Of a DNA stretch of 43,365 bases, positions 1 to 43,365 are shown in pieces (within the stretch, counting starts at the first letter, position 1; each line of letters begins with the position of its first letter). Position numbers and translations under genes: made by a program. Origin of the DNA: Pseudomonas phage 119X. The stretch lies in sequence record NC_007807.1. One strand, written 5' to 3'. The notes beneath the pieces are model-generated. The model searched no databases and was not told where the DNA came from. It saw nothing but the letters and a program-made list of their open reading frames with translations.

Positions 1-22
1 TAAGTGTATAGTGGTCATATTG

Positions 23-100
23 ATAGGGGGTTAAAAAATTCTTTATTATTAGGGGGTATATAGGGGAATAGAGAATAGGGATTTATAGGGGATAATAATT
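23..100. repeat. Five copies of ATAGGGG(G)/TATAGGGGAATA/TATAGGGGATAATA at irregular 10-27 bp spacing, followed by a G8 homopolymer at 126..133
   Basis: Read directly. Copies at 23..30, 50..57, 62..66, 77..81 and 87..92. The complementary-orientation CTATCCCCC motif occurs twice in the last 35 nt of the window. Confidence 0.7.
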
Positions 101-180
101 ACAGGGTAGTGGACTATTATAAGGAGGGGGGGGCCACCCCTAAACCTACCTCGGCCTACTTTGAGATTGTTTCAGAAAGT

Positions 181-229
181 TTGAAAAAACATTGAAAAAA
201 CCTTGGGCCAAAACCTTGGGCAACCTTGA
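181..229. repeat. Iteron-like direct repeats: TTGAAAAAAC x2 (181..190, 192..201) and ACCTTG(G/A) x3 (201.., 213.., 223..) at 10-13 bp spacing
   Basis: Read directly. ACCTTGG is the reverse complement of the CCAAGGT repeats at the right end, 43207..43277. Confidence 0.7.
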
Positions 230-331
230 CTCCCGATTGCACGTAACCACGGCCAATTTTACGAATAATTCACCAGGGACCATGATTATTAGTCAGGGAC
301 TAGGCCGAGGCTAGACTAAATAAAAGGCAAT

Positions 332-361
332 AAAAAACCCCCTGGCCTTTCGACTAGGGGG
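332..361 (-). terminator. Rho-independent terminator for the leftward left-arm transcript
   Basis: The minus strand reads CCCCCT-agtcgaaaggcc-AGGGGG followed by TTTTTT, ~20 nt past the stop of gene 381..1112. Confidence 0.5.
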
Positions 362-380
362 CTTAGTGCTAGGTCTAGAC

Positions 381-1112
381 TTACCAGTCCAGTTCTGCCG
401 GGTCTTGCTCGCAGTATTCTGCGATCTTCTGGAGGAAACCGGCTTGCCATTCGGACAATTGCTCGGCATTAACCAGCGCTTCGCCGAATTCGTTTACCCA
501 GCCCAATACGGCATTCCGCACATTCTCAGGCTGCGCCAGCAAACCTTCCGGCTGATTGAAGAAGGAGATAGCCAGCTTCTTGACGCCTTCGGATTTTGGC
601 AGATTGGAAACGAATTCGCTCCAGGCTGCGATAAGAGCGCGGCGCTCAGCAAACACGACACTGGCTTGACGCTCAGAAGGAGTAATAACCTCTACGAAAT
701 TCTCCGGCATCTTGCAGCCAGGGCGCAGAGTAGCAGTTTTAGTCTGGAGCTTATTACGAGCATCAGCCTTGCAGGTAGAAACTACAGAACGATACAGGAA
801 GGCTTCTGCCAGTCCCTCATACTGATACAGCCCATCCTCAGTCAGGTCAGGAGTACCGTCAGCCTTGAGCTTCGGAATAACAGCCAGGCCGAATTCTTCC
901 AGGGAAGGAATGTAGGACGACCATTCGCCTACCTTGACGCGGCCTTTGCCTTCTACCTGCTGGCTAACTTCGTTGGTAACGATCATACCAGGGAACTTAA
1001 TTACTTGAGCTTCGGACATTTTCTGAATCCTCGGAATTGATTGGATGGTCAATCCGTCCACCTTAGTGGCGGTCGGTTTGGGCACTATAACGAAGTAACC
1101 CAGCATAGGCAA
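381..1112 (-). CDS. Hypothetical protein, last gene of the leftward left-arm operon. The annotated start is TTG; the ATG two codons in (plus 1104..1106) is more likely.
   Basis: 243-aa ORF with protein-like composition. The opposite-strand ORF 366..1040 is L/R-rich, typical of an antisense shadow. An intrinsic terminator lies ~20 nt downstream of its stop on the minus strand. Confidence 0.55.
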   Translation of the reverse strand: MPMLGYFVIVPKPTATKVDGLTIQSIPRIQKMSEAQVIKFPGMIVTNEVSQQVEGKGRVKVGEWSSYIPSLEEFGLAVIPKLKADGTPDLTEDGLYQYEGLAEAFLYRSVVSTCKADARNKLQTKTATLRPGCKMPENFVEVITPSERQASVVFAERRALIAAWSEFVSNLPKSEGVKKLAISFFNQPEGLLAQPENVRNAVLGWVNEFGEALVNAEQLSEWQAGFLQKIAEYCEQDPAELDW

Positions 1113-26274: not shown

Positions 26275-27528
26275 CTATATTCCTATTCTATCTCGTTCTT
26301 GCTTGGTTAGAACTTCTGGAACTAGAATGTCTTTTGCCCAGGCTGGTAATGAGCGCTGAACTACAGTCATTCCTTTCATTCCATTGGGAAGTTCTACATA
26401 TTTGATCTTACCAGAATTATATAGATCCATTAGGCAGCTATGGAATTCGGCCTCCCTATTAAAGTCAGAAATGAATACTCTATAAAGATCCCGTACTGTT
26501 ACTGGCAGTCCTTGCTGATCCAAGTATTCAACCATCGCATGTTGGCTAATGGATACTTTACTTCTTCCTAGATGCCCCAATGCTGTAGGCATCTCATGCT
26601 CAGCTACAACCAGAACTGTATTAGCGGCCAATACGTCTTCTACGGATATCTCTGTTTGAAGTCTTGCGGCTGCGTGTATCATAGCCAGCTTCCAGAGGTG
26701 AGTAATTCTGCGTCCGCTATAATGAGCAAACCGAGGGTCTTCCAATGGCCGCTGGTTCTGATATATGTAATCCATCACTTTGAAAGCATCAGATGTAATT
26801 CTTGCCTGACCTTTAACTGTCTCCTTAATTGCTTTAAGCTTAGCCCCGATATCCTTAACCTGTTCAGGTGTAGGAATGTATGGGATCAGTAGCTTCTTAT
26901 CAGTTGAATGAGCGTGGATAAATAATATCCTACTCATGGTTCCTGTACCAATGAGGTGAGGAGGAAGTGCCTTATTAAGAGTATCCGGTGTGCAGGCTCC
27001 TAATAAATTAATAGTTGGCTTTGGAACTTTAACTCTTTTACGGGTTACTTTAGGGTTATCATATACTGGTAGATTGTCGTACAAAGTTGTCAGAGTCATC
27101 AGATAATCTGTATCACCTTGCCCAATGAAATTGACGAACTCTTCTGCATGGATAGTCATCTCAAAAGGGTAGTCAATATTCATATCGAATAAGGCTTCTA
27201 GATCATCACCAATTAGATTCTCCGGTTGATTAATATAGTTAAGTTCATCAAGAAAGGATTCTCTACTCATTCGGTCAGGGGCCAGTTGCTTGTACTCTGC
27301 CATCCTGAGAACCTCAGTTCCAATATTAATCGCCGTAGTCTTACGAGTAGCAGGAACACCCATGAACATAATATAGAGGTTCGGATAGATGTTCTTTGGC
27401 CTAAAAGGGAACCAATACTGGCGCCCTAATATTGACCCAATAAGACTTATAGCCGTCCAGCGATTGAAGGTATCGGGGACTTCTGACTCTCCAACATAGG
27501 CAAAGTAGTCCTGGAAAAAGTCTCCCAT
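26275..27528 (-). CDS. Deviant P-loop NTPase, replication-associated (primase/helicase-like; assignment uncertain)
   Basis: 417 aa. GVPATRKTTAI resembles a deviant Walker A (GxxxxRKT). It is adjacent to and overlaps the DNA polymerase gene. Confidence 0.4.
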   Translation of the reverse strand: MGDFFQDYFAYVGESEVPDTFNRWTAISLIGSILGRQYWFPFRPKNIYPNLYIMFMGVPATRKTTAINIGTEVLRMAEYKQLAPDRMSRESFLDELNYINQPENLIGDDLEALFDMNIDYPFEMTIHAEEFVNFIGQGDTDYLMTLTTLYDNLPVYDNPKVTRKRVKVPKPTINLLGACTPDTLNKALPPHLIGTGTMSRILFIHAHSTDKKLLIPYIPTPEQVKDIGAKLKAIKETVKGQARITSDAFKVMDYIYQNQRPLEDPRFAHYSGRRITHLWKLAMIHAAARLQTEISVEDVLAANTVLVVAEHEMPTALGHLGRSKVSISQHAMVEYLDQQGLPVTVRDLYRVFISDFNREAEFHSCLMDLYNSGKIKYVELPNGMKGMTVVQRSLPAWAKDILVPEVLTKQERDRIGI

Positions 27529-38904: not shown

Positions 38905-40956
38905 TTATAGATTAGCAGTCCAGTCATAACTAGCCGATGGCTTAGTTGAATTAGACTCTAGGCTAGCTGCCCTGGTTAGCAGGTCTGGAGTCAAATATTT
39001 ATGTTCTTCATCTACTTCTACCGGCACGGAATCAAAGTCTGTTACCTTAGCAGTGAAGTAGGCTATCTTATCCTCCAGGGTATTCCCTTTAATTTCTGCC
39101 CTTGCACAAGCCTTTTCAATTAGATCCTCTTTGCCGAAACAGGAGAATTCTTCCCTTGCCCTAGTAAGAGCCGTGTACATTAACTCCCTACTTAACATGG
39201 AAGAATGATCGTAATGGGTAATCAGAAATACTTTCCTCCATTCTGATCCTTGAGACTTATGAACTGTTAAGCAGTAGGCAAACTGGAATTTCTCCTTAGC
39301 GAATTCTCCTGCTGACTTCATTTCATGCCATAGACTTTTTGGAATTCCGTCAGGATAGGCTTCTACTTGATCTTCCCATGCTACGAAGACAGAGTGACTA
39401 GCTGCCCGCTTAGTCATTGATTCATCATCTTCATCCTCATTAGCAGCCTTGATATCCCCTAGATCAAAGTTAGTATAATCCACATCCTCTATATTAACTT
39501 CCTCAGTCTTCCCGCCTACTAGGGGAGTTCCGCCACGAGTATAAGCGCCTGGAGCCTTAGTTACGGTCCCTACATACTTAGGATTTTCCTCGATAGCCAT
39601 TATTCGCCCTAGTCTTTTATCCACTAGGACTAAATCCCCAACAGCCAGATACCATTCGTGCATTGCAGCTCTAATATGATAGACAAGAGCATTCCTGGCC
39701 TGTCCTAAGAATGTGGCTATGCGCTCATTCATTGCCCAAACGCCGCAACCTTTCTTATTCCAGGCTGATAGGATGATATCCTGTTCGGGGTCATACTGTC
39801 CGGCTTCGAAGAGTTTTTGCATAACCCCGCCTAAAGCCATTCCCTGATGATCCATTCCTACTTTAACCTTTGCTCGCCCTGTTATTAGGTTAACCCGGCC
39901 ACAAGGACTTGTTTGGAAAGGTAATCCCTTTAGAACTCGGTGGGCATTTGCAATGATTGGATTATCCAAGGCCTGTCGATAGACTTCTGTTAGTTCTATA
40001 ACAGGGAGCTTACTAAGGGCATAGGCCAGGATTGGATTACCGAAAACAGGCTGTAGCTGGTTAATATCCCCTAGGTAGATAATCTGAACTCCGGGATTCA
40101 GGGCAGCATACAGGTTCATCCATAGATCAACCCCGACCATCGAGGCCTCTTCAATAATCAGGTGAGTAATTCCCATCCGATTACAGGCATTGCGCATAGG
40201 CCTGAAAATCCTTACCTCATAATCGATCCCCTCATCATTCTCCCTAGTCTCAATTACCGGCTCGTATTCCAGTAGACTATGAATAGTCATGCAATGCTCT
40301 ACATACTTCATAGTTGCCGGATTCTTCTTAAGCGCTTTCTGAATATTCCTTACTGCAACCTTAGTAAAAGCTACGATTGCAATAGAATCCTTTTCCCCAA
40401 TGTATTTGAAGTTATGGGTACTGAAAGCGCCCTGTTCTTCTAATGCCTGAACTACTGCGGCCTGAGCGGTAGTCTTACCAGTTCCGGCTGCTCCAGTCAG
40501 AGCAAAGCATTGTCCTTCCCTGGCATAAGTAACTGCCTTAGTCTGCTTATCATTCAAGACTATATCCCCGAATCTAATTAGCTCAGGATTAGAGCCAATC
40601 TCTAGCGTGGGCTTGGCTGACGAAGTCTTGATTGCAGAGCGATTAGCTTCTATTGAGGCTTGTCTGGCTGCCTTCATCCTATCTAAGAATGATAGAGTAG
40701 CCTTTGCCTCTGATAGGCTAGAATCTGGCGCCTGACAAGCTTCCCCATCCTCTAGTTTAGCCTTAAACACTTCATCCTTTTCTTTGGGGCTTAATCCGGC
40801 CAATTCTGAGACTGGAATGGCTACTGCCTGTTCTGCTAAGGCTGCTTTCTTTTCCAGCATCTTTTGCAGGAAACTTAGTTCAGGCTTAGGCTCAGGCTTA
40901 GGCTCTTCGGCCTTAACTGATTTAGCCTTGATTAAATCTTTGAAGTTAATTGCCAT
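38905..40956 (-). CDS. Superfamily 1B DNA helicase, Dda/RecD-like
   Basis: Walker A LTGAAGTGKTT, Walker B IIEEASMV, motif III YLGDINQLQPV, motifs V/VI TVHKSQGSEW and YTALTRAREE. Confidence 0.75.
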   Translation of the reverse strand: MAINFKDLIKAKSVKAEEPKPEPKPELSFLQKMLEKKAALAEQAVAIPVSELAGLSPKEKDEVFKAKLEDGEACQAPDSSLSEAKATLSFLDRMKAARQASIEANRSAIKTSSAKPTLEIGSNPELIRFGDIVLNDKQTKAVTYAREGQCFALTGAAGTGKTTAQAAVVQALEEQGAFSTHNFKYIGEKDSIAIVAFTKVAVRNIQKALKKNPATMKYVEHCMTIHSLLEYEPVIETRENDEGIDYEVRIFRPMRNACNRMGITHLIIEEASMVGVDLWMNLYAALNPGVQIIYLGDINQLQPVFGNPILAYALSKLPVIELTEVYRQALDNPIIANAHRVLKGLPFQTSPCGRVNLITGRAKVKVGMDHQGMALGGVMQKLFEAGQYDPEQDIILSAWNKKGCGVWAMNERIATFLGQARNALVYHIRAAMHEWYLAVGDLVLVDKRLGRIMAIEENPKYVGTVTKAPGAYTRGGTPLVGGKTEEVNIEDVDYTNFDLGDIKAANEDEDDESMTKRAASHSVFVAWEDQVEAYPDGIPKSLWHEMKSAGEFAKEKFQFAYCLTVHKSQGSEWRKVFLITHYDHSSMLSRELMYTALTRAREEFSCFGKEDLIEKACARAEIKGNTLEDKIAYFTAKVTDFDSVPVEVDEEHKYLTPDLLTRAASLESNSTKPSASYDWTANL

Positions 40957-42456: not shown

Positions 42457-43152
42457 TTACCAGTCCATTTCAGATATCTGAGATTGGGTTAAGGGACTAC
42501 CTATAGTTAGACCGGAGCCAGTCTTAGAGGCTAGCCATTTATTCGGGTCATCGAATCCTTCCCTAGTTAGGAAAATCTCTAGGTATTCTAGATAGGAGTC
42601 CAGGCTAGCCAGGGCATTGGCTCTAGATAGAGCTTTAGCCGGATCAATAGTCCCTCCTACTACTAGTAGGTTATTAATCAATTCAAGCTGAGCAGCTTTT
42701 CCCTTAGCTGAGTAGAGCTTAGCCTTAATTGATTTGAGTGTGGCCAGATGAGATTGCGTGAAAGTAGGATTTGAGGCCCGCCATTGCGGGGAACCGACAG
42801 TTCTAACTTTAGCGTGGGCCAGGAAATTGGCTAGAGTCCAATCAGGCTGAATAGGTAGAACTCCCTGGAGATAGACTAGGCTAATACTGGTAGTGAATAG
42901 GGGGAATTGTTTAGTTAGAAAGGTTCCTCCCTTCTTAGTCTTAGCCTTTGGAATAGGGTTAGATTGGGTTAGATCAGAGGATGGAACCTCGGCTTCTAAA
43001 TCAGCCAGGGTTAGGACTAATTCCTTTTCAGTCCCAGGATTAGGATTAGGATTAGGATTAGAATTAGGATCAGCCTTAAGGCTAGGGTTAGGATCAGTCG
43101 AAGGCTGGAGTAAAGATTTGAGGAAGGAAGAATTAGCCATTGGAAGCTCCAT
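42457..43152 (-). CDS. First gene of the leftward early block: protein with an N-terminal (NP)5 repeat
   Basis: 231 aa. NPNPNPNPNP is encoded by a hexanucleotide tandem repeat (TAGGAT x5, read on plus) at 43037..43070. Confidence 0.5.
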   Translation of the reverse strand: MELPMANSSFLKSLLQPSTDPNPSLKADPNSNPNPNPNPGTEKELVLTLADLEAEVPSSDLTQSNPIPKAKTKKGGTFLTKQFPLFTTSISLVYLQGVLPIQPDWTLANFLAHAKVRTVGSPQWRASNPTFTQSHLATLKSIKAKLYSAKGKAAQLELINNLLVVGGTIDPAKALSRANALASLDSYLEYLEIFLTREGFDDPNKWLASKTGSGLTIGSPLTQSQISEMDW

Positions 43153-43206
43153 AGGTTGGTTTTTGGGTCGGCCATAGTTTGCCGGGGTAGGGAGTCCATT
43201 GTAGGG

Positions 43207-43277
43207 CCAAGGTTAGGTCAAGGTAAATGTCGAGGTTCAGTGAATAAAGGCCAAGGTAGATCAAGGTAGGCCAAGGT
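43207..43277. repeat. Iteron-like array: (C/T)CAAGGT(A/T) x5-6 at 10-13 bp spacing. The three tightest copies, CAAGGTAG, are 10 bp apart at 43251..43280.
   Basis: Read directly. Copies at 43207, 43218, 43231 (CGAGGTT variant), 43251, 43261 and 43271. It is the reverse complement of the ACCTTGG repeats at 199..229. Confidence 0.7.
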
Positions 43278-43283
43278 AGGGAA

Positions 43284-43360
43284 GGGGGTAGGGGTAGGCT
43301 TAGAATAATTCCATCCCCAGGTTAAGACTGCTATCCCCCAGGAAAAGGAGTCTATCCCCC
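43284..43360. repeat. Terminal G-tract then C-tract motifs: GGGGGTAGGGGTAGG, then CATCCCCA, CTATCCCCCA, CTATCCCCCTTATA
   Basis: Read directly. The last 15 nt reverse-complement to TATAAGGGGGATAGA, which closely matches TATAGGGGAATAGAG at 59..73. Confidence 0.6.
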
Positions 43361-43365
43361 TTATA

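Follow-up and report, generated by a model that had tools for sequence, protein, structure and literature searches.

What do the short repeats at the right-hand end of the Pseudomonas phage 119X genome do? The window analysed here is the whole 43,365 bp of record NC_007807.1, from a podophage of Pseudomonas aeruginosa belonging to the 119X/PaP2 group (Fredfastierviridae, Jamesmcgillvirus). Just upstream of its first early gene, a leftward homologue of PaMx41 ORF53, it carries a run of CAAGGT(A/T) repeats, which an earlier reading of the sequence alone had taken for iterons at a right terminus, possibly overlapping the promoter of that gene. According to the comparisons below, the array forms one of the two arms of a cis element, the one nearer to the first early gene. 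Tentatively, and with less than an even chance, this may be an iteron-like, origin-type element for a lineage-specific phage protein, with a proximal arm that would also gate early transcription.

Phased repeats and their inverted partner

The proximal array (43208–43280, plus strand) has CAAGGT(A/T) at 43208, 43219, 43252, 43262, and 43272, with a degenerate CGAGGT at 43231. The copies of CAAGGTAG at 43252, 43262, and 43272 are exactly 10 bp apart, as had been seen from the sequence alone, and Tandem Repeats Finder (TRF) reports a period-10 array at 43248–43280; the further copies said to lie upstream at 11–13 bp include a pair that is actually 33 bp from this trio. Measured from the first copy, the copies start at 0, 11, 23, 44, 54, and 64 bp, so that all of them should lie on approximately one face of the helix. 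A genome-wide count against expectation, which the sequence-only reading had proposed as a check, finds 29 copies of CAAGGT on both strands, eight of them in a 590-bp non-coding region where 0.40 would be expected (Poisson P = 1e-8). There are five same-strand copies within 70 bp; the maximum in 500 Markov-1 simulated genomes was two. The view that the repeats are non-random and helically phased is borne out by these figures.

The non-coding region spans both ends of the window. In five records (TF17, 20Aug470, Neko, PaMx32, and FBPa48) the sequence runs unbroken from window position 43365 into position 1, the PaMx32 junction reading …GTCTATCCCCCTTATA|TAAGTGTATAATGG…, and 43141–43365 and 1–365 therefore form one continuous non-coding region. 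The supposed right terminus is the point at which the record was linearised and not a demonstrated end of the DNA; no direct repeat linking the two window ends was found.

Across the junction lies a distal array (197–231, minus strand), with ACCTTG at 200, 213, and 223 on the plus strand, that is, CAAGGTT on the minus strand. It is inverted relative to the proximal array, so that the two arms face each other. Degenerate inverted copies precede it at 136–164 (minus-strand TCAAAGTAGG, CCGAGGTAGG, and TTTAGGGGT in 10-bp phase; CCTACCTCGG/CCTACTTTGA on the plus strand). Each arm consists of a 6–8-bp word set about once per helical turn, with five to six copies at 43208–43280 and three exact plus two degenerate inverted copies at 136–231. 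Between them is an inter-arm core of about 290 bp, and the dyad centre of the arms falls at about 30–35, within an AT-rich stretch at 31–51. This stretch is part of a conserved core (9–51, plus strand), GTGGTCATATTGATAGGGGG followed by the AT-rich TTAAAAAATTCTTTATTATTA, which marks the approximate centre of the dyad and is also kept by relatives at the family level. G-tracts flank the AT-rich centre (window 9–110).

The same layout with other words in distant relatives

Homologues of the helicase encoded at 38905–40956, at 43–58% identity, are found on many contigs of 42–46 kb. Dozens of contigs of this size make up a large Jamesmcgillvirus-related clade, known here only as assembly contigs. 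Six loci (L101–L106), with helicases 52–58% identical to that of the window, were compared. L102–L106 are syntenic, with terL and terS leftward, small genes, an ORF1 homologue, a terminator, a non-coding region of 470–790 bp, the ORF53 homologue, and the helicase; the L101 contig breaks inside the non-coding region, and only the side of the ORF53 homologue was recovered.

Each of the six has a distal array, a central core, and the same word inverted in a gene-proximal array, and neither the window nor any of the six relatives mixes forward (distal) with reverse (proximal) copies. When the spacings are pooled, they are most often 9, 10, or 11 bp, with multiples of these close to 20, 30, and 42 bp; a period of 10–10.5 bp fits best. 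The core is also kept, with the consensus CCCCTATA…ATTTAAAATTTnATACCCC…CTATGACCA on the early-gene strand. The word itself is specific to each lineage: CAAGGT(T/A) in the window, GAAGGTT plus CAGATGG in L103, GGAAGGA(A/T) in L104, TGAAG(A/G)G in L106, GCTAGAA plus GCCAGA(T/A) in L102, and a TGGC-type word in L101. Layout and phasing that are kept under a lineage-specific word are the signature of a rapidly diverging, element-encoded DNA-binding protein, and not that of a host factor. Host-factor sites (IHF, DnaA boxes, sigma54, and OmpR/PhoB-type boxes) gave no convincing match by eye, and the lineage-specific words oppose them as well.

Variation within the genus

Fourteen database records match the last 2.4 kb of the window at about 90–93% identity (about 95% genome-wide), and 12 genomes, the window and 11 relatives, were aligned for comparison within the genus. 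Copies 1, 2, and 5 of the proximal array are invariant among them, while copies 3 and 4 vary (C[A/G]AG[G/A]T and CAA[G/A]GT); the distal array is near-invariant. Repeat cores are more constrained than spacers, with 4/30 variable columns compared to 8/17 (Fisher P = 0.016). A 23-bp block of about two repeat units (43229–43251, plus strand) is present in five of the 12 genomes (the window, Ph_15, PaMx33, Neko, and 20Aug470) and absent in seven. Where it is missing, the five copies form a clean 11-10-10-10 array.

This two-unit indel and one additional 7-bp unit gained by PaMx32 in the short repeats at 24–110 show ongoing expansion and contraction. Together with the unexceptional conservation of the region within the genus, they could be taken to mean that the tandem repeats were generated by slippage and have no sequence-specific function. 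Such an explanation is scarcely credible beside the greater constraint on the cores and the recurrence of the two-armed inverted layout with different words, and slippage does not create matched inverted arms.

Promoter candidates in the region

Sigma70-like sites were scored with an approximate weight matrix built from consensus frequencies. The minus-strand candidate for the first early gene pointed out in the sequence-only reading, TTTACC (43227–43222), an 18-nt spacer, and TACAAT (43203–43198), is present at 43198–43227. It agrees with the consensus at 9/12 positions, has a score of 9.8 (99.992th percentile of genome positions), and both of its hexamers are invariant in the 12 genomes. It scores like the three clearest sites elsewhere, TTGCA(A/C)-N17-(C/T)AT(A/G)AT at 42.4, 36.6, and 31.9 kb. 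The suspected overlap with the repeats is also there, with repeat 2 over the -35 hexamer and repeat 1 inside the spacer. Since these two innermost repeats cover the -35 and spacer, occupancy of the array would shut down or gate the first early promoter, and in this genus such gating is plausible on the sequence.

This is not, as had been claimed, the only place where a promoter for the gene can sit. Upstream non-coding DNA runs for 365 bp more and contains a second leftward candidate (TTTAGG-N17-TATAAT, 144–116, minus strand, score 10.3) and a rightward one (TTGATA-N18-TATTAT, 20–49, plus strand), the -35 of which is TTGGTA (TTGGCA in PaMx41) in 9/11 relatives and kept as TTGATA in PaMx43 and PaMx33. 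All three candidates are in the top 0.01% of genome positions. Overall, what stands of the earlier interpretation is a set of non-random, phased repeats over a sigma70-like site; its premise of a terminus and its claim of a sole promoter do not, and the inverted partner arm had been missed.

The overlap raises the question of whether the repeats are a purely transcriptional operator, at which an early or middle repressor or activator would bind the proximal array and bridge to the distal one, forming a repression loop around the promoters of the non-coding region that times early-gene shut-off. The positions of repeats 1 and 2 in TTTACC-N18-TACAAT would suit this, as would phasing at one turn, which is appropriate for cooperative repressors of the ribbon-helix-helix, helix-turn-helix, or winged helix-turn-helix types, and the proximal arm adjoins the first early gene in every lineage. 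The equivalent site in L104, TTGCAC-N17-CATAAT, 68 nt before the gene, has a ATTCCTTCC repeat in its spacer, and a weaker sigma70-like site precedes the gene in L106; L102, L103, and L105, however, have no convincing gene-proximal sigma70-like site in the array. No regulator was identified among the neighbours, the distal arm directly follows a terminator, where there is no gene for it to regulate, and the conserved AT-rich core is left unexplained. A pure operator is possible but doubtful. A simple operator at the promoter does not account for two inverted arms facing each other across a conserved core, and promoter gating does not explain the whole architecture.

Candidate binding proteins

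TerS was considered as the array binder and rejected: lineages that differ in their array word share an almost unchanged N-terminal helix-turn-helix (…VSPSYISQL…). This makes the arrays improbable as TerS sites and points to a variable protein; the conserved core could still be a TerS box. The genes on either side of the region, ORF53 and ORF1, both represent conserved orphan families; neither matches Pfam or an informative PHROG, or has a recognisable domain. A Rep-like winged-helix protein was considered for ORF53, but its alignment was shallow and the AlphaFold model was unusable (predicted local distance difference test score, pLDDT, of 39.5).

The most plausible binder found is ORF28 (26275–27528, minus strand), a DUF3987 AAA+ protein, which is put forward as a lead rather than a demonstrated link. 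In its model (pLDDT 87), the best Foldseek matches to the AAA+ core are MCM2–7 subunits (E about 1e-8), and a C-terminal winged helix of three helices and a beta-hairpin is predicted at residues ~325–389. Conservation within the family is lowest over the C-terminal 90 residues, at 0.23–0.27 compared to 0.4–0.5 in the ATPase core. ORF28 is annotated as a ‘putative primase’; no primase domain is evident.

The region as a possible origin

In the reading tentatively preferred here, the arrays would be cooperative binding sites, and a phage-encoded, lineage-specific protein, for which ORF28, MCM-like with its variable C-terminal winged helix, is the candidate, would bind along a single side of the helix in both arms. 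Such an element might act as an iteron-type origin, with inverted recognition repeats bracketing an AT-rich region where unwinding would take place. In the origins of pSC101, P1, and F, iterons are accompanied by inverted repeats that overlap a promoter, and in iteron plasmids such inverted repeats over the rep promoter give autoregulation. In satellite phage P4, the alpha primase-helicase recognises the ori/crr octamers through its winged helix. The region resembles both in having several short repeats near an AT-rich segment, a replicon-specific word, and copies over the promoter of an adjacent gene. A single word recurs in defined phase in non-coding DNA (five to six copies at 10–12, or 21, bp, plus 3 + 2 inverted), and the adjacent AT-rich element, at 31–51, is at the dyad centre and kept in relatives, with a putative role in unwinding. 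P4 is similar too in that its 8-bp words occur in both orientations and the protein that reads them joins a winged helix to a helicase.

Several points weigh against an iteron-type origin. Classical iterons are units of about 17–22 bp at a spacing of about two helical turns, whereas the core here is 6–8 bp with a period of 10–11 bp, about one turn, and the two inverted arms are some 290 bp apart; a spacing of 20–21 bp is seen only in the three poorly conserved ATCCCC units. The neighbouring genes include no recognisable Rep-type initiator, and the binder is only a candidate: the link between ORF28 and the array is purely inferred, and C-termini are often variable anyway. The words in the relatives were chosen by eye from k-mer counts. 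GC skew switches sign where gene orientation switches, not at the region; since it tracks gene orientation, it was rejected as an origin signal. Conservation of the array in a profile against four full genomes is 0.73–0.85, compared to a genome median of 0.97, and the idea that the region is exceptionally conserved within the genus was dropped on this account.

A more specific version would bring the element closer to origins of archaea and eukaryotic viruses. Archaeal origins with origin recognition boxes (ORB), Orc1-Cdc6, and MCM, and the GAGGC pentamers of SV40, have inverted recognition elements flanking an AT-rich unwinding region. Here too the repeats are inverted around an AT-rich centre, and one of the phage proteins is MCM-like, of the AAA+ type, with a predicted C-terminal winged helix. 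On such a model, two inverted arms of one-turn-phased winged-helix sites on either side of the conserved AT-rich core would load the MCM-like protein head-to-head, word and winged helix would co-evolve in each lineage, and the proximal arm would be an off-switch for the first early gene after the onset of replication. The differences are that the repeats are shorter and many more per arm, that this is a bacterial podophage, and that the link between ORF28 and the sites is only inferred. The model is rather improbable as a whole.

Record ends, packaging, and partition

Do the places where records are cut say anything about the physical ends of the DNA? PaP2, four complete aligned PaMx records, and Ph_15 are cut where the window is, within a base. 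Logan/ENA assemblies, which were never re-linearised, break at arbitrary places, often inside genes, and contig ends were rejected as a proxy for physical ends for that reason. PaMx41 has reportedly been described as linear and terminally redundant. The paper on phage Tiera, a relative, gives no termini.

The region might be the concatemer junction of a terminally redundant genome, with a direct terminal repeat or cleavage site in the core and arrays that serve end processing, packaging, or DNA entry, like the SRL/SRR repeats of T7. In T7, about 12 CCTAAAG units at 13-bp spacing come right after the 160-bp terminal repeat, upstream of early promoters, and their function is likewise poorly defined. 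The T7 arrays are, however, direct and not inverted, and T7 has mapped ends, whereas the window has the linearisation point of a record. The PaP2, 119X, and PaMx records are all cut 8–10 bp from the conserved GTGGTCATA core, which is suggestive, and the region is among the two longest non-coding stretches of the genome. Phage Shea, with 98.6% average nucleotide identity (ANI) to PaP2, was found by PhageTerm to have “terminally redundant ends” (PMC13348215). The shared record ends may simply follow the convention set by PaP2, however, and other places were used for the cut in the five records that read through the junction and in the Logan/ENA contigs, in the latter often within genes. With the TerS recognition helix conserved and the words different, at most the core would be a terminase site, and a junction seems on the whole unlikely.

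The terminal repeat of T7 (L025, 81–146) contains ACCTTGAGGGT and ACCTTGAGTGT, and its flanking words CCTAAAG/CCTAAGG resemble the ACCTTGG of the window, probably by coincidence. In the terminase recognition sites P1 pac and SPP1 pacL/pacR, short repeated boxes occur on both sides of a central cleavage region. The flanking of a central region by short repeats is shared with the element considered here, but the TerS helix-turn-helix is conserved across lineages in which the array words differ, and this argues against terminase boxes in the arrays.

A partition site would be another way to combine repeats and a promoter. In parC of plasmid R1, two clusters of ~11-bp repeats flank a promoter, and the small DNA-binding protein ParR coats a single face of the helix cooperatively and controls its own expression. 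Clusters of one-turn repeats on either side of a promoter are reminiscent of this, but the parC repeats are direct and contiguous and the arrays here are inverted. A centromere-like site of this kind could keep the phage as an episome in pseudolysogeny, and Shea does persist as an unintegrated episome (PMC13348215). Among the proteins scanned, which covered part of the open reading frames (ORFs), there was no partition NTPase of the ParA, ParM, or TubZ type, no ParB domain, and no ParR/ParB-like gene. Partition is accordingly very unlikely.

Prior description and significance

Short repeats in helical phase are already familiar from phage control regions. A literature search found no paper discussing these particular repeats, and in none of the records examined are the repeats, an origin, an early promoter, or DNA ends annotated. 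The two-armed inverted layout, with lineage-specific words and a conserved core, across a large uncultured clade, appears to be undescribed. It defines a discrete, testable control element with an architecture shared across that mostly uncultured clade, and the lineage-specific words offer a natural swap route to the binding protein. PaMx41-type phages are now models for work on anti-phage defence such as the cyclic-oligonucleotide-based anti-phage signalling system (CBASS), and an episomal state has been reported for relatives. If the region is an origin, an MCM-like phage helicase would be linked to a defined DNA site; if it is a junction, the genome ends would be located for engineering and packaging studies.

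Other features of the region and its surroundings

On the plus strand, the order of elements is the copy at 43183, the proximal array, a G-rich block, ATCCCC units, the core, TAGGGG/ATAGGGA repeats, G8CCACCCC, the degenerate inverted copies, two copies of TTGAAAAAAC, the distal array, and the terminator. The first of these (43183–43192, plus strand) is a degenerate extra copy, CGGGGTAGGG in the window and CGAGGTAGGG in 11 relatives, with an inverted match to CCTACCTCGGC at 145–155. The G-rich block, GGGAAGGGGGTAGGGGTAGG (43281–43300, plus strand), holds degenerate units of the GGTAGG type. Three ATCCCC(C) units on the plus strand (43313, 43333, and 43354) are 20–21 bp apart in the stretch 43313–43365, the most variable of the region within the genus. 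The earlier description of the end of the window by CCCCC motifs is right as to these units, but runs of five C residues are kept only in part of the genus, and the conserved word is CTATCC. Beyond the junction, TAGGGG and ATAGGG(A) short repeats are spaced at 7–11 bp (24–110, plus strand), and the TTGAAAAAAC(A) direct repeat has its two copies at 181–205 (plus strand). Rfam covariance models gave nothing near gathering score in the contiguous region of PaMx32 and 20Aug470.

The replication and early genes occupy 43140 to 23922 in leftward orientation, and the late genes point rightward (terS at 2096, terL at 2797, portal, capsid, and others); between the region and terS is a short leftward operon, from ~1900 to 381. 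An intrinsic terminator at 328–362 (minus strand), a CCCCCT..AGGGGG hairpin followed by a T-run, ends this ORF1 operon and is also annotated as a terminator in PaMx41, PaMx43, and PaMx35. The first early gene (42457–43140, minus strand) belongs to an orphan family conserved in the wider clade. Its start had been placed at 43152; the ATG at 43140, with GGAG at 43150–43147, is likelier and is the one annotated in PaMx41. Near the N-terminus of its product, a tandem repeat of AGGATT (5.8 copies, 43036–43070), which differs in length among relatives, encodes an (NP)n low-complexity run. Both ORF53 (42457–43140, minus strand) and ORF1 (381–1019, minus strand), with their homologues in L101–L106, have an acidic-aromatic C-terminal tail (…EMDW, …ELDW, …DF, …DL), resembling the C-terminal protein-interaction tails of phage and bacterial single-stranded DNA-binding proteins (SSBs).

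The second large non-coding stretch, at 1519–2095, separates terS from the short leftward operon, which points away from it. This stretch has the best sigma70 match of the genome (TTGACT-N16-TAGAAT, minus strand, 1790–1763), blocks of G/C-tracts, and a 13-bp tandem repeat at 1973–1999. PaMx41 has a small ORF3 annotated within the equivalent region, and one Logan contig and the FBPa48 record start in it. The three clear promoter-like sites elsewhere (minus strand, ~42440–42405, 36655–36620, and 31945–31910) share the extended motif (GGGGG)TTGCA(A/C)-(A)TTTTGCAAT-N8-9-(C/T)AT(A/G)AT, in which the duplication of TTGCAAT suggests a shared operator or a promoter class for the leftward gene blocks.

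A scan of IMG/VR for CAAGGT-N4-CAAGGT-N4-CAAGGT returned 73 loci, all unrelated except L062 (3300043447_000734). There, at 1330–1365, three copies of TCAAGGTGTC at 10-bp spacing lie about 25 bp upstream of a leftward gene, in a 500-bp non-coding region; TerL and portal are 25 and 20% identical to those of the window, and the likeness of the repeats may be convergence or chance. In another IMG/VR locus, L014 (3300025811_000042), which belongs to a relative, three copies of GGTAGTAGGTGGATAGGTAGTA at 2084–2154 are found beside an (AT)n stretch, in a non-coding region upstream of an ORF1-terS-terL block with 42% (TerL), 30% (TerS), and 35% (ORF1) identity.

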